A DNA stretch of 39,628 nucleotides from a virus (IMGVR_UViG_2565956762_000004); one strand, 5' to 3'; positions 1,531 through 39,628 are shown, counted from the stretch's first letter. Notes: generated by a model from the letters alone, not told the origin. Translations and numbers: made by a program.

Positions 1531-1695
1531 CATGTTCTTGATGATCGCATCACCAAACTCGCTGCATTTCAGCAGTTTAGCACCTTCCATCAGACGTTCG
1601 AAATCATAGGTTACGGTCTTCGCATTGATTGCGCCTTCCATACCTTTAACAATCAAGTCTGCGGCTTCAGTCCAGCCCATATGGCGTAACATTAG
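1531..1695 (-). pseudogene. icd: displaced 3'-terminal fragment of isocitrate dehydrogenase gene (about 54 codons, no 5' part)
   Basis: Minus-strand translation [54 protein letters not shown] matches the Icd C-terminus. Upper boundary is approximate. Confidence 0.75.
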
Positions 1696-2502
1696 ATTTA
1701 GAAAATTATTATATCCAATTGAATTAAAACAATTTTATGCTTAACGAACATCTAAACTTGTTTTTTTACCTTCACCATAACTCGCTGATTTTGTATAGTT
1801 TACGTAGCGTTTTGATAACCACTTTATGGCCAAATGGAGGTTCGCTTGAAAACTTCTGTTCTTATCCAGAAATTAATGGAAATTGACAAAACTGTACTAT
1901 TCGATGCGGACGTAGTGACCGGTGAGGAATGGTGGCCAACCCCGATTTCTCGTGTTTATCACAATCCGCCACATACTTATGTAGAATTTTAAATAGGTGA
2001 ACAATCTCAAAATGAATCTGACGAGCTAAGTGTTTATAGCGAATTATAAATTTGTGCACATCGAATGATGCAAATTAGAGATTTTGTGCAATCTAACGAG
2101 GGACTGAAACCTGAAAAAATTGTTTCGGAAATAAACATTCAAATTGAACGTATTAAAAAGTGATGGCTGAAGCAATTCTGAAACACTAATTCATATTCTA
2201 TGTTATTCATACCAATGTGGATTTAACTCCCACCAACCCACCAACCATGATTGGGCGGCGCAATAAACTAATATCAATAAAAACAGCAAGTTATCATTCT
2301 AAACAGAACACCAACGGGATGGAGGAGAGACAAAAAATATCCAATGAAACCGTAGCGCGTCAGCATTCAAAAGCGGGGTTTCTTATTTTTACTTCACCAG
2401 TAACAAATACACTGTATCATAACTACATAAAAATGATTGTTCTGACTCAGATGAATTTCTTACTCTTGTGGAATGTCACTTAATGTTATTTATAGGTAAA
2501 CA

Positions 2503-4392
2503 ATGAAATCCGAAACGCTAACCATCCAGCAAATTTTCCAAAATCAACGACAATATCGTGTTCCATTCTATCAACGTGCCTACGTATGGACGCAACGAAA
2601 CCAATGGTCAGCTTTGCTGGAGGATATCTTCGAAAAAGCACAGAGCCGACTTTCGGGAACAAAACCAACCCCTCATTTCCTCGGCGCGGTGGTGCTGGAA
2701 CCTCAACTCAAAAACAGCTTGTTAGGTGTAGATACCATACATATTATTGACGGCCAGCAACGTTTAACCACTCTTCAATATATTCTGGCATCCATTCGAT
2801 TATCATTGCGTGCTACAGGCCTTTCTGAACTGGAAGGGTTAGTATTGACTTGCTTGAAAAATACAAACGAAGCAACGATGAGAAATAAAAAGGTAGAATG
2901 CTTCAAACTGTGGCCAACTTTTCGAGATCAAACTCATTTTATTCAAAGTCTTAATGTTGATAATATTGACGATCTCCGTAATGTATTTTCTGATAGCTTC
3001 ACGCAACATGGTACGTTACGTAAACATTTCAACCACCCGCCGTCACTAGAGGCATTATGGTTTTTTACTGAAGCCTTTATAAAATGGATTAAAATAGAAA
3101 ACCACTCACCACAAGAAAATGCTGTAGCACTAATTGAGGCTGTCTTGACGGATCTGAAACTGGTAAGCATATTTCTCGAAGCTGAAGATGATGCCCAAAT
3201 AATTTTTGAAACATTAAATGGGCGAGGAGCGGAACTTCATGCAACGGATCTTATTCGCAACTATATCTTTATGTGCGCTGAGCATGAAAATATTAATGCT
3301 ATTGAATTATATGAAAATGAGTGGAAGATCTTTGAAGATAAATACTGGTCGGAAAAGCAACGCCGTGGACGTATTAATAAACCACGCATGGAGTGGCTTG
3401 TACATGCGACATTGCAATCAGAAAGGCAGCGTGAAATTGATCTGTCTCGCCTTTACAATGAGTATCGTGATTATGTAAGTAAGGACTTGCCTTCACAACG
3501 AGCAGATCTGCAAGTAAAGCGCCTCAAACAATATGCATCACAATATAAAGAATTGGTTGGTGGTTTTGGCACAACCCCCATCTCACACTTTGGACATCGC
3601 ATCGCAGCCTATGATGTGACGACACTCTATCCGCTTGCTTTGTTCATTTCGATAGCTAACATCGCCGATGATGAGAAAGCAGCCATGTATAATGATCTTG
3701 TCTCCTACGTAGTACGAAGATCCGTATGTGGCCTGACGCCAAAGAATTACAACAATGTATTTATGAATGTATTGCGACACTTGTCTAAAACGGAAATTTC
3801 CAGTGTTGAGTTACGTAATATCCTCAATAGCTTAAATGGCGAAGCCTCACGTTGGCCTGGGGACTCAGAATTTCTCAACGCTTGCATCAATGCTCCACTT
3901 TATCCTGGCAGGCTCGACGCACCGAAAATGCGCTCAATGTTAACGGAACTTGAAAGAGAACTTTGTCGCCAAGTGAAGACAGAAAAGCCTGATGTTCCAA
4001 ATCTTTCTAATCTCGATATCGATCATCTTATGCCTCAAAGTTGGTATTCCTGTTGGCCTCTCGAAAATGGTCATATGGTGACAAATTCAGATGCTACGGT
4101 AATGAACCAAATTGTTCTGTCTGGAACCGATCTTACCCCTGAACAGCTACTGGTAAGGAAACGGCAACAAGCGATAGCTACGTTGGGAAATCTAACTTTG
4201 CTTAACCTTAGCGTAAACCGTTCCGTTCAGAATGCTGTATTTCTGAAAAAACGTGATGCTCTCATCGTCCACACCAATCTACGACTGAACATACCACTTA
4301 TACTTAAGGATAAATGGGATGAGAGTGAAATACTGGAGCGAGGTAAAAAGTTGGGGGAAATTGCATTGAAAGTATGGCCAAAATACGATTAA
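2503..4392 (+). CDS. DUF262/DUF1524 (GmrSD-family) putative type IV modification-dependent restriction endonuclease, 629 aa
   Basis: N-terminal DGQQR motif (IIDGQQRLTTL) typical of DUF262; C-terminal DIDHLMP His-Me finger motif typical of DUF1524. GC below phage average. Confidence 0.7.
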   Translation: MKSETLTIQQIFQNQRQYRVPFYQRAYVWTQRNQWSALLEDIFEKAQSRLSGTKPTPHFLGAVVLEPQLKNSLLGVDTIHIIDGQQRLTTLQYILASIRLSLRATGLSELEGLVLTCLKNTNEATMRNKKVECFKLWPTFRDQTHFIQSLNVDNIDDLRNVFSDSFTQHGTLRKHFNHPPSLEALWFFTEAFIKWIKIENHSPQENAVALIEAVLTDLKLVSIFLEAEDDAQIIFETLNGRGAELHATDLIRNYIFMCAEHENINAIELYENEWKIFEDKYWSEKQRRGRINKPRMEWLVHATLQSERQREIDLSRLYNEYRDYVSKDLPSQRADLQVKRLKQYASQYKELVGGFGTTPISHFGHRIAAYDVTTLYPLALFISIANIADDEKAAMYNDLVSYVVRRSVCGLTPKNYNNVFMNVLRHLSKTEISSVELRNILNSLNGEASRWPGDSEFLNACINAPLYPGRLDAPKMRSMLTELERELCRQVKTEKPDVPNLSNLDIDHLMPQSWYSCWPLENGHMVTNSDATVMNQIVLSGTDLTPEQLLVRKRQQAIATLGNLTLLNLSVNRSVQNAVFLKKRDALIVHTNLRLNIPLILKDKWDESEILERGKKLGEIALKVWPKYD

Positions 4393-5922: not shown

Positions 5923-6820
5923 CTGCTCCGGCACCCGACTGACCCGTTGATGAATTAGGACATAATCCAGCACCGCCACCTCCAGGCCCAACTGCTGATA
6001 CCGCTTTTCCGTTAGCTGTATCTCTGAATGAACCTGCTCCTCCGGGGCCACCACCAGAACCACCATTACCAGCTCCCGATGCGGCAGACGCAATGGAACC
6101 TGGAGAACCTGGCCCAAGCGATGTATTAATTGTTCCCCCAACACCAACTGCGCCTAACCCTCCGGAAGGCTGGCCTCCGCTATAGCCTCCGGAAGCTGAC
6201 ATGTAAGTCCCGAAACTGCTCGAGCCACCATTTTTACCGTTTACAGAAATACCAGACACAGGCGCACCACCGGCACCAACCGTAATCGAAACACTGTTAA
6301 TACCAGTTAAATCTACCAGTCCCTCAGCAACTCCGCCCCCACCACCTCCTCCGCCACATGTAACGGCTGAAGCGGTTATTGAACCTATCCCTCCTGACGC
6401 ACCGCCACCAATAACTTTGACGTAACATTTTCTTCCTTTGCGCAACTCTTCAGGAACAGTCCAGCTTGTTACTCCAGCCGTTGTGAAGGCAACTAGATTT
6501 CTGAACCCAAATGAGCCTTCTCCCAAACCAAGGTTTTCGAGAGCCGTTTTCACCGTGCCATCCGATTTGATATCGCCAAACGGATTCTTGCGGCTTAACA
6601 GCAGCGCACGAAGCGCGGTAAGCAACTGGTCGTGCCGCCCCTTCTCCAGGCTGGCACCGGATGCCTCCACCACGCTGCAAAGCTCCTCCTGCAACATGTC
6701 AAAGTAGTCATCATCCAGATCGGTGGCAGGTGTGCCGGTCTGGGGGTTACCACGGGTAAAACCGTTCTTACCCGCGCCGAACTTATCCTTCTGCGCGGTT
6801 TTCGTGTCTATACGATGCAT
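5897..6820 (-). CDS. tail fibre protein (constant N-terminus fused to the currently selected variable C-terminus)
   Basis: 307 aa, glycine-rich repeats; N-terminus [46 protein letters not shown] typical of side tail fibres; crossover site inside the gene. Confidence 0.75.
6518..6543. repeat. invertase crossover site, right (TTCTCCCAAACCAAGGTTTTCGAGAG)
   Basis: Inverted copy of the 4673-4698 site; conserved half TTCTCCCAAACC identical. Confidence 0.65.
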
Positions 6821-6823
6821 GGA

Positions 6824-7408
6824 TTACTCCGGATATTTAAAAATTACGTAGGTATGCGACGGGCAGAGTTTGTTAAGCACACACTCCACAACGGTGTCGC
6901 CCCAGATACGCAGTGCGGAAGCACAGGGATCGCCACATGTCATCCAAGTGGTGTTGGTGGCAGCTGGCATGTTGACCTGCCAGTAATACCGCCATTCCGG
7001 CGCATTCACCGCGTCAGTACAGGCCGATGAGCAGGTGAACGTGCTTTTGTCGTATCGCGTGATGTTGGCATCTGGTCTGCCCAGGGCAGCAAGCTGTGCA
7101 AGATAAAAATCCTCGTTGATGCCGCCCACCAGGTTAACCTTCGCATCCAGCCGTTGCTGACGCTGGCGAAGGGTCTGCGTTCCCGCCGGAATACATTCAT
7201 CCGGCAGACCGCACAGACGCTCCCAGCGGTTTATCAGTTCAGTGGTGGTGCGCGGATCCAGCTCCCGCATCAGGGCATCCGCACGCTGATGAACACGGGT
7301 TAATGAAGGTGCCGCACCGGCAATCGCCGGATCGCTGGCTGACCACGCCGGACCGGGCGGCAACAGTGCCGATAACAGGCGGATGTAATCATCGTTTGTC
7401 ACGTCCAT
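6824..7408 (-). CDS. DUF2313 / Mu gp48-like tail protein (YmfQ-like, 194 aa)
   Basis: Size and position after a baseplate J-like gene; N-terminus [20 protein letters not shown] as I recall for YmfQ. Confidence 0.6.
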
Positions 7409-8457
7409 GAAATCGTCCCCAGTACCGCCAGTTCGTTTTTCGCAATGGAGATATTGTCCACCGGTGCAAGCAACTGATGGCTGTATTCCCCGTTCGCACC
7501 GGAAATCGCCTCACTGATACGCGATACCTTCAGTTCTCCCTGCGGATAACCATCACGCAGCAGGAACGAACGCAACTCCGCGGTAATGGCAGCCCGTATT
7601 TCTGGTGTGTCCGGCGTCACGCGGATATGAAAATCCACCGTATGTGCCACCGGCCTGAATACATACAAATCAGAGCCTGCCACCGGGGCCAGTGGCCCGA
7701 TATGTTGTCTTGCCGCCGTTTCCGTTGATTCTTCCGGAATGGGGTTAATCAGGTCACTGCTGGCTATCATCACACCGACAGTCCCCGTTCCCATCCAGTG
7801 TCGGTATGTCCATGCGCGGGTAATGCCGGGCACTTCTTTAGCCCAGACGACATAGTCCCCGTCAGCCCCGCCCTGAGGCGTCCAGTAATACCGCTCAATG
7901 ACGCGGGCGCGCCACGTTTCCAGCTCTTCAATATCAAATCCACCTGTCAGGGTATCTGCCTCGCCGGAAGACGGCAGACCATTAACCGGCGTGACCAGGA
8001 TTAATGACGTACCGTCGTCAGCGTTACCGACCGCGCCTGCACTTGAGCAGGCGATCGGCACGCGCAGGACACCACCGGTGCTGGTTGCATCGGCAGTTGC
8101 CGTGTACTGAACCAGGTCATCGCGCTGAATAACACTTCCGGCGGTCACCTTCAGGCCATCGCTGACACCTTCCCAGCGCATATACCCGCTGGCAGCCGTG
8201 GCCCCCTTGCGCGGACACCGTTTCATCGCAGCATGTCGCGCCAGCCAGGACTCATCGCACAGGTCAGGCAGCATGTTCATTGCCAGATAATCGATGTACC
8301 CGTAAACCGTATGCAGCGCCGCCGCATACACCTTTGCCCGCACGTCTTCATCCATGCGCCGGAGCGTGTCGCTGACGTCCAGCCTGGCGAATAAATCGTT
8401 ACGGAGCATACTGATATTTTCTGCCAGCGTCGGGCGCTGAAATTCACTGTCCGCCAT
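7399..8457 (-). CDS. baseplate J-like protein (Mu gp47-like)
   Basis: 352 aa in conserved baseplate order between gp46-like and gp48-like genes. Confidence 0.65.
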
Positions 8458-8872
8458 GCGTTATCGCACTCCACAGATCATCAAAAGAAATCATTACCGG
8501 TCCGTCACGACGCCAGAGAGTGATACTGTTACCCAGTTCATTAATCCCGGTGCGGCGGATATCCAGATCAATACGGGACACCACGCCGTCATCAATCATC
8601 CATTGCAGGCATTCGCGGATATACCCCCTTACCGTCTGCACCAGCTGATTGGTCAGTTTGCTGCGCTGAAGCAGCCACAGTCGGGAGCCGTAACGGTCAT
8701 TCTGTACCGCAGGCCAGGTATCCCCCCACCATCCCATCGGGACGTCGGCATTGTCATCAGGCTCCGCCCGCCGCCAGGTAAACAGGGAAATCACCACGGC
8801 GCGGGTCAGCGGATCCAGCGGTGCGCTGGCGCAGGTGCGTTTACCGTTCACCGTCAGCCACAGTTCCATCAT
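8444..8872 (-). CDS. baseplate protein, Mu gp46-like
   Basis: 142 aa, overlaps neighbours, conserved position. Confidence 0.5.
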   Translation of the reverse strand: MMELWLTVNGKRTCASAPLDPLTRAVVISLFTWRRAEPDDNADVPMGWWGDTWPAVQNDRYGSRLWLLQRSKLTNQLVQTVRGYIRECLQWMIDDGVVSRIDLDIRRTGINELGNSITLWRRDGPVMISFDDLWSAITHGGQ

Positions 8873-9417
8873 GCCTCCATCGCTTTATCAGGTTTGTCGG
8901 TGTTACTGCCCTGACCGTTCTCTCTGTGACGATGCCCGTTATAGGCAAGCCGCATCGCTGACATGGTGGTGCCGCCGGAGTCGCACAGGTCTTTCACCTG
9001 TCCGGTCACTTCAAGGTCCATTTCAAAACGTGCTTTAGGTGAATTGCGAAACGTGATCGTTTTACCTGCACCGTCCACCACGATCCCCTCCCGGGTCAGC
9101 GTCACGGACTGCCCCTGATCGTCATAGACAGCCACCTCACCCGTCTGCAGCCCTTTCAGGCGGTAGCGCCGGTCCGACACCGTAACAACCACCGCATGAG
9201 AACGGTCGCCATCCGGAAACAACACCACCGCTTCCGCACCGCTGTTTGCCCTTGCGGTAAAACCGTAGGGTTCAAGATGTTCAACCCCGGCTTTGGGTTC
9301 ACCGGCAATCAGGGACACATCCACGGTCTGACATTTCGTGGCGGCACTGATGCTTTTCACCACCGCCCGCCCAATCAGGCCGAGGAGTTGTCGCTGTATG
9401 GTTTCAATCGCCTTCAT
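8869..9417 (-). CDS. baseplate assembly protein V-like (spike, Mu gp45-like)
   Basis: 182 aa with N-terminus MKAIETIQRQLLGLIGRAVV typical of this family. Confidence 0.6.
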   Translation of the reverse strand: MKAIETIQRQLLGLIGRAVVKSISAATKCQTVDVSLIAGEPKAGVEHLEPYGFTARANSGAEAVVLFPDGDRSHAVVVTVSDRRYRLKGLQTGEVAVYDDQGQSVTLTREGIVVDGAGKTITFRNSPKARFEMDLEVTGQVKDLCDSGGTTMSAMRLAYNGHRHRENGQGSNTDKPDKAMEA

Positions 9418-10496
9418 CAGAACGGGTCCTCCTGTACTCTGGCTTTTTTCTTTTTCCGCGCGCCGGGGGCTTCGGGTTCAGGCAGATAAGCATCAGGTGG
9501 GCCGACACGGATTTCCGTCAGGGTGCCATTCTGGTCCTGAGTAAACGTGACTTCCGAGACAAGCAGTTCGGTATTGTCGAAACCACAGACCGGATCGAAG
9601 ACAATCACCCGCTGGTTGGGCTGCCACAGCGTACCGTTACCCTGTCGCCAGCCCTGCACCACATAGGTGGTTTCATCCGTCCGCGCCGCCCGTTGCCGGG
9701 CTTCAAAGTCAGCACGGGCAATACAGCCTGCCCCCGTGGCCTGCCCTGTCTGCCTGATATACATCGGACGGTAACGGGCAATAAATGCGTCCTCTGTGCG
9801 GGCCCGCAGCGCGGTGGTGGTGGCCTCACCGAAATCATCGTCGTTTCCGGCACGCTGCCCCGCCACCTGGTAAACTGAAAACCGCTCCCGGATACTCTTC
9901 TCCGTATCACAGGAAAGGATGTTTTCCCCAAGTACCAGCGCGGTATGTGCCCGCGTTGAGCCAATACCGCCAATCACCAGCCTGCCGTGCGGGTCGTCAT
10001 AAGCCAGCGCCTGCTGCTGACCGAGTATTTTGTTGATTACCTCAATCACCGTTTCACCGTGATCAGGCTGGACATCAGGAATAACACCCGACGGCGCACC
10101 GCTGTTCACCACCTCAATGCCGAAAGGCGCAGCAAGCGCCTGCGCAATCTGTACCAGCGATCGTCCGTTAAACTGTGTCGGTTCGGCTGCACAGTCAATC
10201 AGGTCAGCGGTCAGACTGCGTCCGGCAATACCGGTGCTGACCGAACGGGCATCGTAACGAACGGGCGTCGCCTCCACCCAGCCGGTGATCACCAGCTCAT
10301 CACCAATCAGCACCTCCACTTTTGAACCGTTTTTAATGCGCGGCTGAAGCGTGGTGATACCCTCATCTCCCGGCCACTGGCGGGTGATCTCCACACTGAA
10401 ATCCCGCGCCAGTCGTTCAACACCGGCACCGATGCGCACCGATGTCCAGCCATTCCACTCCCGGCCATTTACCCGTAGCGTGACGTTATCGTTCAT
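9417..10496 (-). CDS. tail protein, phage late control D / Mu gp44-like
   Basis: 359 aa, N-terminus MNDNVTLRVNGREW, position between DNA circulation protein and spike. Confidence 0.6.
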   Translation of the reverse strand: MNDNVTLRVNGREWNGWTSVRIGAGVERLARDFSVEITRQWPGDEGITTLQPRIKNGSKVEVLIGDELVITGWVEATPVRYDARSVSTGIAGRSLTADLIDCAAEPTQFNGRSLVQIAQALAAPFGIEVVNSGAPSGVIPDVQPDHGETVIEVINKILGQQQALAYDDPHGRLVIGGIGSTRAHTALVLGENILSCDTEKSIRERFSVYQVAGQRAGNDDDFGEATTTALRARTEDAFIARYRPMYIRQTGQATGAGCIARADFEARQRAARTDETTYVVQGWRQGNGTLWQPNQRVIVFDPVCGFDNTELLVSEVTFTQDQNGTLTEIRVGPPDAYLPEPEAPGARKKKKARVQEDPF

Positions 10497-25802: not shown

Positions 25803-26129
25803 TTACTCCTTCGAGCTACCAAACTTGTTACCGATTACTCTCATTGCCGCACCACGAATAGCATCGACCCCGATCAGCCCAACGCCGCCACCAATGGCAA
25901 CAGAAAGAGATTTAGGCCATCCGACATACTCAAGAGCGGATGCAAAAGTCAGTGTCAGAGCGCCACAGAGAAAAATCTCGAGCGTTTTTCGCTTCCAGCC
26001 ACCACCACCGCCAAAATAGGCAATGCGCAAGCCAGCCATAACGATCGACATAATTACTGCGCCCAGTGGTGTGTCTCCACGCCACCAGCTCTGGAACAAC
26101 TCCAGCCAGGTATTTGGGTTATGAGGCAT
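25803..26129 (-). CDS. holin
   Basis: 108 aa with hydrophobic helices and charged C-terminus, immediately upstream of the endolysin. Confidence 0.5.
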   Translation of the reverse strand: MPHNPNTWLELFQSWWRGDTPLGAVIMSIVMAGLRIAYFGGGGGWKRKTLEIFLCGALTLTFASALEYVGWPKSLSVAIGGGVGLIGVDAIRGAAMRVIGNKFGSSKE

Positions 26130-26274: not shown

Positions 26275-26303
26275 AACGACAAAACCCGCTCGACGGCGGG
26301 TTT
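26275..26303 (-). terminator. tR'-like hairpin in the late leader
   Basis: Minus strand AAACCCGC-N6-GCGGGTTT followed by TGTCGTTTC, upstream of the holin. Confidence 0.3.
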
Positions 26304-26426
26304 AAGTTGTGTGGCGAAGTAACCACTCATAACAGATTACAATGGTTTCTGCGGACCGCGTGAGTGATTTTATTTAATTTTTAATGTAAATTTCAGTTCC
26401 TTTTGAGTGATTACATGGAGTACATA

Positions 26427-27242
26427 ATGAAAGTGTTCATAAGTTGGTCTGGGCAAAGAAGTCAAGCTGTTGCAGAACTTATTAGCGACTGGCTGAAGTG
26501 TGTTATCCAAGCTTCGCAGCCATGGATTTCAACCAGAGATATTGATCGTGGCGCTATATGGTTCTCTGAAATTAATGATAAATTAAAAGATGTATCTGTC
26601 GGCATTGTATGTTTGACACAAGAAAATAAAAATAAACCATGGATTTTGTTTGAAACAGGAGCACTAGCAAAAGGACTTTCAACAAATAAAGTTTGTACAT
26701 TCTTGATTGACTTAAAACCAGAAGATTTAAAAGATCCACTTGCTCAATTCAATCACACAACGCCAAATAAAGAGAGTGTTTGGGAATTAGTAAGGACAAT
26801 AAACAATTGTCTTGTCGATAAATCTTTAGATGACCGTATTCTAAAGCAAGTTTTTAATACATACTGGGAGCAATTTGAAAACAATTTTAAACGAGCTTTA
26901 GATCAATACCCTCCAACTGAAGAAGTAAAACCACGTACTGAACAAGATCTTTTATCTGAAATATTACAAAACACTCGTTCATTAAATCAAAGGATTAGAG
27001 TTCTTGAACGTGATGCTACTATCAACTCCATAAATAGCCATATGAATTTAACTCCTGTAGAACAGAAGGATGTTTGGTATCTACAAAAACAGATAGATGA
27101 AATTATAAAGAATGGATTGCTTGACGAGGATGAAATAATATCATTCTTAGACAAATATGACATTCCTGAAAAAATGATTAGGAACCAAATAAAATACACA
27201 TTAAACCAACGATTATCTGAAAGTAATAAAAAAAAGAAATAA
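26427..27242 (+). CDS. TIR-like domain protein with helical C-terminal extension (start chosen at MKVFISWSG)
   Basis: KVFISWSG...W.S...I..G..W......L......GIVCLT.EN...PWILFETGA fits the bacterial TIR pattern; GGAG 6 nt before the ATG; low GC; opposite strand to neighbours. Confidence 0.6.
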   Translation: MKVFISWSGQRSQAVAELISDWLKCVIQASQPWISTRDIDRGAIWFSEINDKLKDVSVGIVCLTQENKNKPWILFETGALAKGLSTNKVCTFLIDLKPEDLKDPLAQFNHTTPNKESVWELVRTINNCLVDKSLDDRILKQVFNTYWEQFENNFKRALDQYPPTEEVKPRTEQDLLSEILQNTRSLNQRIRVLERDATINSINSHMNLTPVEQKDVWYLQKQIDEIIKNGLLDEDEIISFLDKYDIPEKMIRNQIKYTLNQRLSESNKKKK

Positions 27243-27245
27243 CCT

Positions 27246-27281
27246 TCCCCCGTAAACATAAAGTTTACGGGGTTATTTTTT
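27246..27281 (+). terminator. strong intrinsic terminator between the TIR-like gene and Q (convergent, probably bidirectional)
   Basis: Perfect 10-bp stem CCCCGTAAAC/GTTTACGGGG followed by TTATTTTTT. Confidence 0.65.
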
Positions 27282-27282
27282 A

Positions 27283-27648
27283 TTATAACTCCATATCTAA
27301 ATGAATATCGAGAGTAGAAAGGCAACCATCAATGAATCCCTCTGCTAACAATATTTCTATACGGATTAATTTCTCATCCTTTCCTTGTATTTTGGCAATC
27401 TTCCGCTTTGAAAACCCGTACAAATAATGCGCAACCAGTAAAGAATGCTCATAAGGTTTTCTTTTTTTTAGTTGCTCCAAGCAACTTTCAATAATTAGCG
27501 CATCATTATCTGAACAAGCTTGGCGTGCCTTACTGGTATAGGGAAGAAGTCCCTTAAACCCAGCAGCTATAGGCGAATAGTCCACTCCTGAGCTATCACT
27601 AGCTGCCCATGCCCCCCAACGTTCAAGGATGATCTGAATATCACGCAT
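27283..27648 (-). CDS. late antiterminator Q (QuuD-like)
   Basis: MRDIQIILERWGAWAA...IAAGFKGLL resembles the short Q family; position upstream of the lysis cassette. Confidence 0.7.
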   Translation of the reverse strand: MRDIQIILERWGAWAASDSSGVDYSPIAAGFKGLLPYTSKARQACSDNDALIIESCLEQLKKRKPYEHSLLVAHYLYGFSKRKIAKIQGKDEKLIRIEILLAEGFIDGCLSTLDIHLDMEL

Positions 27649-27665
27649 CAAATTTCTCCACAAAA

Positions 27666-38292: not shown

Positions 38293-39189
38293 ATGCAGTT
38301 GTATGCCTTACGTGTGTTAATGAGACCGCGCGATCCAGACCTCTTTTCGAAAGGAGCTGTTCAGAAAGATATCTCTCATTTTGAAAATGCTATGGTTGTC
38401 GCTGCAAAAAATTTACACATGACGTCATCAACACCTTCCGTTCATAAGAAAACTAGTTACACCCTGAAATTGAGCATAAAACCTACTGATGGTGTTATGG
38501 CTGGAGTCATATCAAAGCTGCAAAAGATTAAAGGACATGATAAAGACTTTCGAGAGTACGATGTAGACAACTATCCACCTATCGTATGGATTTGGGACAA
38601 AGTAGAGCAGGTGTTACTGGTTGAGAGGAAAACCGCTGTTTTCAAGGATGCGCAACAAGTTGCTAAAGCATTCGAAGATCTAGCCAATAACGACTATTTG
38701 GCTCAGTTAGGACTTAGAATATTTATAGAGCCTTGTCTTGAAATGGAAGATTTTTGGTCAGAATACCATAGGCTTCAATTTATCGACAAAGTCAGCTTTA
38801 CGCTGATTACTCCGAATATCTTCGGAAGCAGTAAGCAAGCGTTAACCAATGATTTACGGAAGCTTGAAAAAGATACCAATGCAAATACTGTGACCACTAT
38901 TTTTGAAAACAAAGATGGCAATTTGAAACTCAAAGGTTCTCATTGGGCTGAGACTCTTGTTGACTGGGTCAAAGATGGTGGCGGGTCATGGTTGATTAAA
39001 GGACGTAAGACACTCAAGTCAAAATCTACTACGGTATCCAGTAATCAGACAGCCAAAATCGTGCTGATCGAAGGTGAGATATCAGAAATTGAACTTGATG
39101 GCTACTCAGCAAATGATATTAAAGAGATCATAGCATTACATCAAAACAGGTATACGTTCAAAAATGCAAAATCTAACTGTCTGGATTAA
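38293..39189 (+). CDS. hypothetical soluble protein, 298 aa, first gene of int-proximal cargo cassette
   Basis: AGGAG Shine-Dalgarno 7 nt before ATG; low GC; no motif recognised (no HExxH). Confidence 0.6.
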   Translation: MQLYALRVLMRPRDPDLFSKGAVQKDISHFENAMVVAAKNLHMTSSTPSVHKKTSYTLKLSIKPTDGVMAGVISKLQKIKGHDKDFREYDVDNYPPIVWIWDKVEQVLLVERKTAVFKDAQQVAKAFEDLANNDYLAQLGLRIFIEPCLEMEDFWSEYHRLQFIDKVSFTLITPNIFGSSKQALTNDLRKLEKDTNANTVTTIFENKDGNLKLKGSHWAETLVDWVKDGGGSWLIKGRKTLKSKSTTVSSNQTAKIVLIEGEISEIELDGYSANDIKEIIALHQNRYTFKNAKSNCLD

Positions 39190-39628
39190 AGCTATAGCTA
39201 CCTTCTTTTTGTGCTTAGCATTAGCATCGACTGATAAAACCATTTATACCTTACTTGAGCAGGCTTCTGCTGGAGTAATAGGTTCAATACTTGGAGGTAT
39301 TGCCGCAGGTATCTCCGTTATCTTCGGAATTTTGGCTGTCATTAATAAGGGCGAGAAAAGCACAGACTTTACGGACTATTTAGATAGTTTAGAATTAGAT
39401 TTGAAATTACTGGTCATGTGTCTGGCAGTAACAATCTTCCTTCCCTATTTACGTAATTATGACATACCACTAGTAAATTATCCTCAGCACGAATTTATCC
39501 CTTCTAAAGGCAAGCTATTTACTGCTTTAGAACTTTTTGCTATCGTGCTATCTCTTAACCTCATTGCAGAAGTGATTAGCTGCATGATTTTAGTGGTTAA
39601 AAAAAGTTTCAAAATTGAATCAAAGTGA
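39164..39628 (+). CDS. small membrane protein with about four TM helices, 154 aa
   Basis: Four hydrophobic segments; start overlaps the upstream gene by 26 nt; stop is the last codon of the window. Confidence 0.55.
   Translation: MQNLTVWIKAIATFFLCLALASTDKTIYTLLEQASAGVIGSILGGIAAGISVIFGILAVINKGEKSTDFTDYLDSLELDLKLLVMCLAVTIFLPYLRNYDIPLVNYPQHEFIPSKGKLFTALELFAIVLSLNLIAEVISCMILVVKKSFKIESK

Follow-up and report, generated by a model that had tools for sequence, protein, structure and literature searches.

A solitary TIR-domain gene between Q and the probable late promoter of an SfII-like prophage, a candidate single-protein anti-phage effector

A TIR gene on the strand opposite to Q and the lysis genes

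We analysed a gene in the viral sequence IMGVR_UViG_2565956762_000004, an SfII-like prophage of 39,628 nt (hereafter the window, meaning this whole stretch of DNA), whose twin genome copy is integrated beside icd. The gene lies on the + strand between the antiterminator gene Q and the holin gene and encodes a protein of 271 residues that starts with a TIR domain (Table 1). Its interval holds a single long + strand open reading frame (ORF), which would extend over 26403-27242 if translation began at a TTG codon. We took the ATG at 26427 as the start because it is preceded by a GGAG at a distance of 6 nt, because homologues all begin with MK[IV]F, and because the Prokaryotic Genome Annotation Pipeline (PGAP) agrees: on an identical Escherichia coli locus it uses the same ATG for WP_000862379.1 (271 aa, 'TIR domain-containing protein'). 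Public annotation thus already labels the window protein a TIR protein. A previous interpretation of the window made from its letters alone (the sequence-only reading) had placed the gene at 26330-27285, a span that contains the real coding sequence but adds about 100 nt of left flank and, on the right, the terminator.

The same reading had described the gene as low in GC and as having its own terminator, and both descriptions hold. GC content is 31-37% along the TIR gene versus 50-57% in both flanks, and 6 nt past the stop codon a hairpin with a 10-bp stem (6 GC pairs) is followed by a T-run on the + strand. This hairpin is the terminator of the TIR transcript and possibly also that of the Q transcript; the two convergent transcripts would be separated by it, and bidirectional terminators are annotated at the equivalent place in phage mEp390. 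A weak + strand promoter candidate (GTGATT-17-TAAATT, 26364-26392) comes from our own reading of the sequence.

The TIR gene is oriented opposite to Q, holin, endolysin and Rz, and its further - strand neighbours are a DUF968 protein, the endolysin and the Rz/spanins (leftwards of the holin). The whole 956-bp interval recurs at an identity of at least 99.5% in 25 of the 5,426 complete E. coli genomes, with a Q gene adjoining it in every case. The E. coli strains carrying the TIR gene come from humans, dogs, poultry and pigs.

Table 1 Features of the TIR locus in the window (positions counted from the first nucleotide of the window).
Feature	Position	Strand	Basis
Lambda-family holin, first late gene downstream of the leader block	25803-26129	-	
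Conserved late-leader block (putative pR', short leader and tR')	26281-26388	-	promoter/terminator scan, alignments
Intrinsic terminator hairpin of the leader block	26303-26282	-	
Invariant sequence of the leader block, CGCGGTCCGCA	26360-26350	-	
-10-like TAAAAT	26372-26367	-	
Low-GC mosaic module (TIR gene, terminator, 3' five-sixths of Q)	26372-27601	.	blastn, GC profile
Shine-Dalgarno GGAG, 6 nt 5' of the ATG	26417-26420	+	sequence reading
TIR protein coding sequence (271 aa + stop)	26427-27242	+	ORF; PGAP; Pfam TIR_2; PADLOC TIR-TM; phrog_13899 (E 3.4e-100)
TIR domain, residues 1 to ~130	26427-26816	+	
W72 codon	26640-26642	+	
E76 codon	26652-26654	+	
Conserved helical extension, residues ~131-195 (helices 136-160 and 172-205)	26817-27011	+	secondary structure, low entropy
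Hypervariable C-terminal tail, residues 196-271 (helices 210-228, 234-240 and 248-270)	27012-27239	+	entropy, identity
GC-rich hairpin between the convergent TIR and Q genes	27248-27272	.	terminator scan
Antiterminator Q	27283-27663	-	Pfam Phage_antitermQ, PF06530

The N-terminal domain is a TIR domain with an invariant glutamate

The TIR pattern that had been noticed in the N-terminal ~130 residues (FISWSG, GIVCLT and WILFETGA) is present in all its parts, and profile searches bear out the assignment. Pfam TIR_2 (PF13676) matches residues 3-97 with 31.1 bits (gathering score 28; E 3.7e-07), the same family is precomputed on nearly all homologues, and the best defence-system model is a TIR model of PADLOC (see below). 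A scan of the TIR protein against NCBIfam gave no match. An AlphaFold model built from a 145-sequence alignment that includes the AC1 subfamily (introduced below) reached a predicted local distance difference test score (pLDDT) of 90.3 and superseded an earlier model from 24 close homologues, in which residues 41-110 had scored only 27-47. The newer model adopts a flavodoxin-like TIR fold in residues 1 to ~130, with five strands alternating with helices (βA 2-6, αA 10-26, βB 31-34, αB 43-53, βC 56-63, αC 71-83, βD 89-93, βE 109-111 and αE 115-128), and places five more helices within residues 136-270, where the sequence-only reading had expected a helical region. Its top structural matches in Foldseek are SPARTA TIR-APAZ, plant TIRs, SpbK, BtpA and PdTIR.

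Two residues near the start of the predicted helix 71-83, W72 and E76, are invariant in all 145 sequences, which represent two subfamilies. In the profile alignment they fall on W204 and E208 of AbTir (family PW-i-n-FE versus DW-T-N-YE). The AbTir variant E208A is inactive, and W204, on helix αC, is required for cyclisation of ADP-ribose (ADPR); an aromatic residue at this position is typical of TIRs that make cyclic ADPR (10.1101/2022.05.07.491051). AbTir-type nicotinamide adenine dinucleotide (NAD+) hydrolases (NADases) are the sole PDB sequences that the family profile reached, with the WxxxE motif of αC aligned. The alignment is marginal: a narrower family profile found no TIR match among PDB sequences, and the broader one reached AbTir only marginally. 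AbTir also differs in that a coiled coil forms its N-terminal part, and it is not known to be carried by prophages. Given the model, the Pfam match and a glutamate that stands in the usual catalytic position, as had been proposed, we regard it as practically certain that the protein is a TIR protein with a catalytic-type Glu76. Neither of the two outcomes named beforehand as contradicting the sequence-only reading, another fold or a lacking glutamate, was observed.

A strongly conserved body carries a hypervariable tail

A profile search of 1.84 billion representative sequences returned 11,794 clusters at 50% identity (E <= 1e-3), and 5,430 at E <= 1e-30. Family members are nearly all 250-300 aa long, and the profile match usually spans residues 1 to ~200. 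Among the close homologues (48-78% identity) are proteins of Nitrosomonas, Thiobacillus, Gallionella, Planctomycetota and marine Gammaproteobacteria.

Conservation along the protein is sharply divided. Across 118 relatives, column entropy is 0.05-1 bit over most of residues 1-195, which comprise the TIR domain and a helical extension containing the family-invariant L180 and R184, and rises to 2.2-3.6 bits from residue 196 onward. Mean pairwise identity is 81% in this body versus 24% in the tail, and even where two bodies agree at 95% or more of their residues, the tails may be no more than 30% identical. The tail is nonetheless alignable, with the pattern G-x-x-x-E-D-E-I ... Y-D-x-P-E. Scattered weak matches of the tail to known domains (RecX_HTH1, SHOCT-like, designed helical repeats) led to no assignment.

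The contrast in identity between body and tail reads as a possible arms-race signature. We propose that the body would serve as effector and assembly scaffold and that the tail, as the part exposed to the arms race, would be the sensor or specificity module.

A member of the family at a Niveibacterium locus (7980-10099) is present in two fragments lying ~1.25 kb apart, together with an opposite-strand ORF of 450 aa. The segment with this ORF is probably a gene-disrupting insertion.

The closest characterised relative belongs to a three-gene defence system

Among PADLOC models, the best match was PDLC03016 'TIR-TM' (E 1.7e-57, 193.6 bits, query residues 1-257). On the same model the TIR protein of the P2-like phage AC1 (P2_AC1) scores 393.1 bits, and P2_AC1 holds the full PADLOC set of 2TM-TIR, 1TM-TIR and TIR-TM. 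The TIR-TM component is named Rst_TIR_tm in DefenseFinder. For the three-gene AC1 locus, protection has been demonstrated against lambda, LF82_P8 and P2 (Rousset et al. 2022, PMC9122126). This homology to the TIR component of a validated 2TM-1TM-TIR system had been overlooked in the sequence-only reading, as had the existing TIR annotation.

Homology between the window protein and the AC1 TIR extends across the TIR domain and into the first conserved helices (38% identity over 179 residues), and the two proteins have W72, E76, N126, L180 and R184 as common invariant residues; both genes are prophage cargo at a variable hotspot. They differ in the C-terminal region, which is unlike, in length (271 versus 315 aa), and in place, which is a lambdoid slot between Q and pR' here and a P2 hotspot beside the replication gene for AC1. 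Also, no 2TM or 1TM gene accompanies the TIR gene here or in the surveyed loci. The model name 'TIR-TM' might imply a transmembrane tail that has been truncated in our protein. We ruled this out, finding no hydrophobic segment in either the window protein or the AC1 TIR, so that 'TM' in the model name denotes the partner proteins.

A second point of comparison is SpbK of the Bacillus subtilis element ICEBs1, a single-protein abortive-infection NADase of 266 aa that consists of a four-helix sensor and a TIR domain (PMC12847820, PMC8880864). The dodecameric portal of phage SPbeta clusters SpbK, whose TIR domains form head-to-tail strands and cleave NAD+ (PMC12847820). Both are lone genes on a mobile element, encoding ~270 aa with a TIR and a small helical domain, but the order is reversed: in SpbK an N-terminal four-helix bundle precedes a C-terminal TIR, whereas the window protein has its TIR first. 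As regards Thoeris, the PADLOC match to ThsB1 is weak and below significance (E 0.018), Pfam ThsB_TIR scores 14.1 bits (cut-off 21.2) and falls on residues 196-262, outside the TIR region, and ThsB acts with an adjacent ThsA, whereas no ThsA adjoins the window gene.

No partner gene is conserved beside the family

We surveyed 42 genome loci from Gamma- and Betaproteobacteria, Planctomycetota, Verrucomicrobiota, Acidobacteriota, Deinococcota, Bdellovibrio and a Ruminiclostridium. Searches with tblastn for AC1 gp03 (1TM) and gp04 (2TM) found no match in the window, in mEp390 or in these loci, and no ORF suited to be a 1TM partner adjoins the TIR gene. When all ORFs within 5 kb were clustered across 44 loci, no neighbour family was conserved; the TIR gene alone was common to them. 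Small recurring groups of neighbours reflect local synteny, namely Q/DUF968/RusA in prophages, a block in Pseudomonas, and a pair of large proteins in three loci, possibly of restriction type as judged by size only. Some homologues adjoin probable restriction-type genes (again by size only) or an OLD nuclease. A co-oriented gene, which in many loci ends just 5' of the TIR gene, was considered as a conserved partner and ruled out, the proteins being mutually unrelated (phmmer); some of them look like housekeeping proteins from their N-terminal sequences.

AC1-type relatives that we looked up individually are solo as well. One occupies a P2 hotspot in Klebsiella, another stands at the end of a prophage, in Serratia the gene is flanked by LacI and LysR genes, and in Burkholderia it adjoins an OLD-family nuclease. 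Genes for SIR2, SLOG or Macro proteins are absent from the window and from the annotated 41-kb twin locus, as the sequence-only reading had said for the vicinity of the gene. Since neither a ThsA-like nor a membrane partner was found and no neighbour is conserved across the 44 loci, the gene is an orphan, and the suggestion of an orphan TIR gene stands.

In two loci the gene directly 5' of the family member starts with a second, unrelated TIR-like N-terminus (DVFISHS... and RLFISYSW...): 6865-7866 in a Bermanella metagenome-assembled genome and 6412-7920 in Niveibacterium. Each of these arrangements may represent a tandem of TIR genes.

The TIR gene lies upstream of the probable late promoter

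Between the TIR gene and the holin gene lies a conserved late-leader block, which could also be aligned in mEp390 and a Phytobacter prophage and in which we recognise a probable pR', a short leader and tR'. In the Stx2 phages ASU11 and 1720a-02, which have the same Q family, the block starts at the Q stop codon, and a methylase gene, tRNA and stx lie downstream. It adjoins the holin gene in SfII, SfIV and 434 and the late genes in cdtI. In the window, mEp390, SfII, SfIV and cdtI, the block is kept beside the late genes, and varied cargo, always on the opposite strand, is found between Q and the block. What the block has in common with lambda-like phages, 434, PA-2 and phiP27 is confined to the 55 nt nearest the terminator (91-95% identity), and in 434B this 55-nt terminator element occurs again between the holin gene and an antisense porin gene. 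Rfam yielded no credible family for the leader block or its terminator, and folding of the putative 87-nt leader RNA gave nothing besides the terminator hairpin (z -0.87).

From this comparative anatomy, pR' would fire leftwards from about position 26361. A competing candidate directly after Q (TCGATA-18-TATAAT, 27311-27282) lies inside the end of the Q coding region, and no promoter is preserved at this place in mEp390 or the Phytobacter prophage; we rejected a pR' right after Q because the holin-side block is what abuts Q in the Stx2 phages. In Stx phages of a different Q type, too, the late promoter is closely associated with Q and tR' lies just downstream (PMC7547250). With pR' at the holin-side block, the TIR gene would lie between Q and pR', upstream of the promoter and outside the late transcript.

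This placement qualifies two earlier claims. The gene had been called antisense to late transcription, which is right as to its orientation, opposite to Q and the lysis genes, but the evidence does not support a late transcript crossing it, given that the probable pR' block lies on the holin side. It had also been said to occupy the slot of stx genes, which the comparison does not support: stx lies downstream of the block in ASU11 and 1720a-02, and the TIR gene upstream of it. While stx is downstream of pR'-tR', in sense orientation and Q-dependent (PMC7547250), the TIR gene is antisense and, by its placement upstream of pR', its expression would be independent of Q. Morons between Q and the lysis genes (stx; the lc/nmpC porin of PA-2, 434B and DLP12) resemble the TIR gene as low-GC cargo in the Q-to-holin interval, and the 434B porin gene further resembles it in being antisense and in standing on that side of the common terminator element which faces Q.

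As a separate observation, the late promoter of the block would give rise to a constitutive RNA of ~80 nt, a positional counterpart of the StxS/6S short transcripts.

The TIR gene travels with a particular Q allele

Homology to SfII (blastn) stops at 26371, exactly at the -10 element, and restarts at 27602 inside Q. These breakpoints delimit a low-GC module in which the promoter-proximal DNA and the TIR gene are joined to the terminator and the larger part of Q. Q itself is mosaic: its first ~60 nt alone are common to SfII, and the remainder belongs to the TIR module, so that the TIR gene and a particular Q allele travel together. The same linkage was found in mEp390, which has a 59%-identical TIR gene in the same slot and orientation, and in a Phytobacter prophage.

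The slot between Q and pR' holds other cargo in related phages. In SfII (locus coordinates 1616-3230) it is a two-gene antisense cargo that PADLOC recognises as the defence candidate PDC-M53A/B. The two-gene antisense cargo of SfIV (1015-2437) and cdtI (2058-3446) has no PADLOC match; one of these has DUF6731. The slot has the appearance of an unexplored hotspot for cargo or defence genes.

A single-protein anti-phage enzyme is the favoured interpretation

We consider it probable, on combined analysis of these data, that the gene, as prophage cargo, specifies a soluble TIR enzyme which acts against phages as a single protein, namely as a clustering-activated abortive-infection NADase with a C-terminal sensor. 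A defence role would be supported by the TIR-TM match, by the homologue in the validated AC1 locus and by the defence candidate in the SfII slot. The protein also shows the features of single-protein TIR effectors, which are a functional class and not a sequence family: a mobile element, no conserved partner and a C-terminal helical region. In a lysogen, the TIR protein would be made from its own, presumably weak promoter, independently of Q and of late transcription. Upon superinfection, the variable C-terminal helical unit would bind a phage-made protein or multimer, whereupon TIR domains would cluster head-to-tail and complete a composite active site. NAD+ would then be cleaved to nicotinamide and ADPR and/or a cyclic ADPR isomer, and the loss of NAD+ would abort the infection. 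We propose this mechanism because its logic has been shown for SpbK, with the domain order reversed, and because of the TIR domain with its glutamate, the solo occurrence and the properties of the tail.

Several points weigh against this proposal. Experimental support comes solely from the 38%-identical AC1 homologue, which was cloned and tested alongside two membrane proteins, and sufficiency of the TIR alone was not shown (PMC9122126). The alignment to AbTir, though coherent, is statistically weak (E 0.12) and is persuasive only together with the Pfam match and the structural model. The promoter scan returned no + strand promoter for the TIR gene above threshold. The tail convincingly matches no Pfam or PDB family, and its variability could stem from relaxed constraint instead of sensing. 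Finally, an aromatic residue at the W204 position would fit signalling as well as NAD+ depletion.

This last point leads to the main rival, a ThsB-type signal generator, in which a cyclic ADPR isomer would activate an unlinked effector or a general host target and the protein would not itself deplete NAD+. The invariant Trp72 stands at a position correlated with a cyclic product, the weak ThsB1 match points the same way, and for the AC1 system its authors suggested signalling from the TIR to the membrane proteins next to it (PMC9122126). SpbK, too, makes N1-cADPR (PMC12847820), and a receptor, if any, would be unlinked. However, the lack of a conserved neighbour extends over Proteobacteria, Planctomycetota, Verrucomicrobiota, Acidobacteriota, Deinococcota and Firmicutes, and so wide a solitary spread makes dependence on a specific unlinked receptor unlikely. 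A ThsA-like gene is likewise missing from the window and the twin locus, the rest of the host genomes not having been searched. We judge a pure signal generator to be rather unlikely, while keeping it ahead of the explanations that follow.

A smaller chance falls to another substrate or a role in the service of the prophage, such as decapping of NAD-RNA or tuning of host NAD metabolism or lysogeny. Removal of NAD caps from RNA is reported for bacterial TIR proteins (PMC10937652), and the tight linkage to one Q allele within a common low-GC module, seen also in mEp390 and the Phytobacter prophage, would suit a prophage function. On the other hand, many homologues lie outside prophages, beside housekeeping or defence genes, and a hypervariable tail is what an antagonistic interaction would be expected to produce; we regard this explanation as improbable.

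It is very improbable that the gene is an inactive leftover of a 2TM-1TM-TIR system that lost its membrane partners, as might be supposed from a PADLOC score half that of the AC1 protein and from the only validated relative having been tested as a three-gene block: among the 11,794 clusters, almost all of 250-300 aa, the solo form is the rule, AC1-type genes are themselves solo in P2 hotspots, purifying selection on residues 1-195 is very strong, and the copies in the 25 E. coli genomes are intact. Equally hard to credit is a role in virulence, in which the protein would target the host in the manner of TcpC/BtpA and disturb Toll-like receptor signalling in animals. The BtpA and PdTIR folds among the structural matches and the human and animal origin of the carrier strains might suggest such a role, but it does not sit well with close homologues in free-living bacteria, an invariant catalytic glutamate and a protein in which no hydrophobic segment was found (a secretion signal was not searched for).

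Novelty and significance

The TIR annotation, the PADLOC family model, the homologue in a validated system and abortive infection by single-protein TIRs are already known. Three aspects appear to be new: that solo genes, very numerous and very conserved, are the prevailing form of the family, that its tail is hypervariable, and that it occurs as cargo between Q and pR'. Our literature searches found no study of the solo protein, its tail or this cargo position, and a 2022 survey of NAD-related domains in viruses reported viral TIR genes as infrequent and does not mention the enterobacterial group (PMC9503650).

More tentatively, and with doubt still prevailing, the window gene might found a very large and hardly studied family of TIR immune sensors that consist of one gene each, with about 12,000 clusters at 50% identity in many bacterial phyla, in which a conserved TIR-plus-helix effector would carry an exchangeable, fast-evolving three-helix tail of ~75 residues for phage recognition and, in lambdoid phages, be expressed in the lysogen from a Q-pR' slot that is linked to the Q allele and unlike the stx slot.

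If the solo gene protects alone, the TIR would be the autonomous core of the 2TM-1TM-TIR system, and current defence finders, by insisting on the membrane partners, would be overlooking single-gene copies in their thousands. A near-frozen body of 195 residues combined with a hypervariable tail of 75 would offer a compact model of phage recognition by TIR NADases, and swapping tails should retarget specificity if the tail is the sensor. For lambdoid prophages, two cargo positions would have to be told apart, one upstream of pR' and Q-independent, the other downstream of tR' and expressed on induction only, like stx, a distinction that matters for predicting when prophage cargo is expressed. No new principle is involved. 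Abortive infection through TIR proteins is established, and so are defence hotspots in prophages.

Other genes in the window

Just past the integrase gene lie two + strand ORFs, 38293-39189 (298 aa) and 39164-39628 (at least 154 aa, running off the window), which have no Pfam or PADLOC match and are annotated as 'hypothetical' in the twin genome. Near the tail-fibre end, the window encodes a GmrSD-type type IV (modification-dependent) restriction enzyme of 629 aa (2503-4392, + strand), matched by Pfam GmrSD_N and GmrSD_C and, over its full length, by PADLOC mREase_IV (1523 bits). It is a second defence cargo of the prophage and the sole other recognised defence gene in the window.

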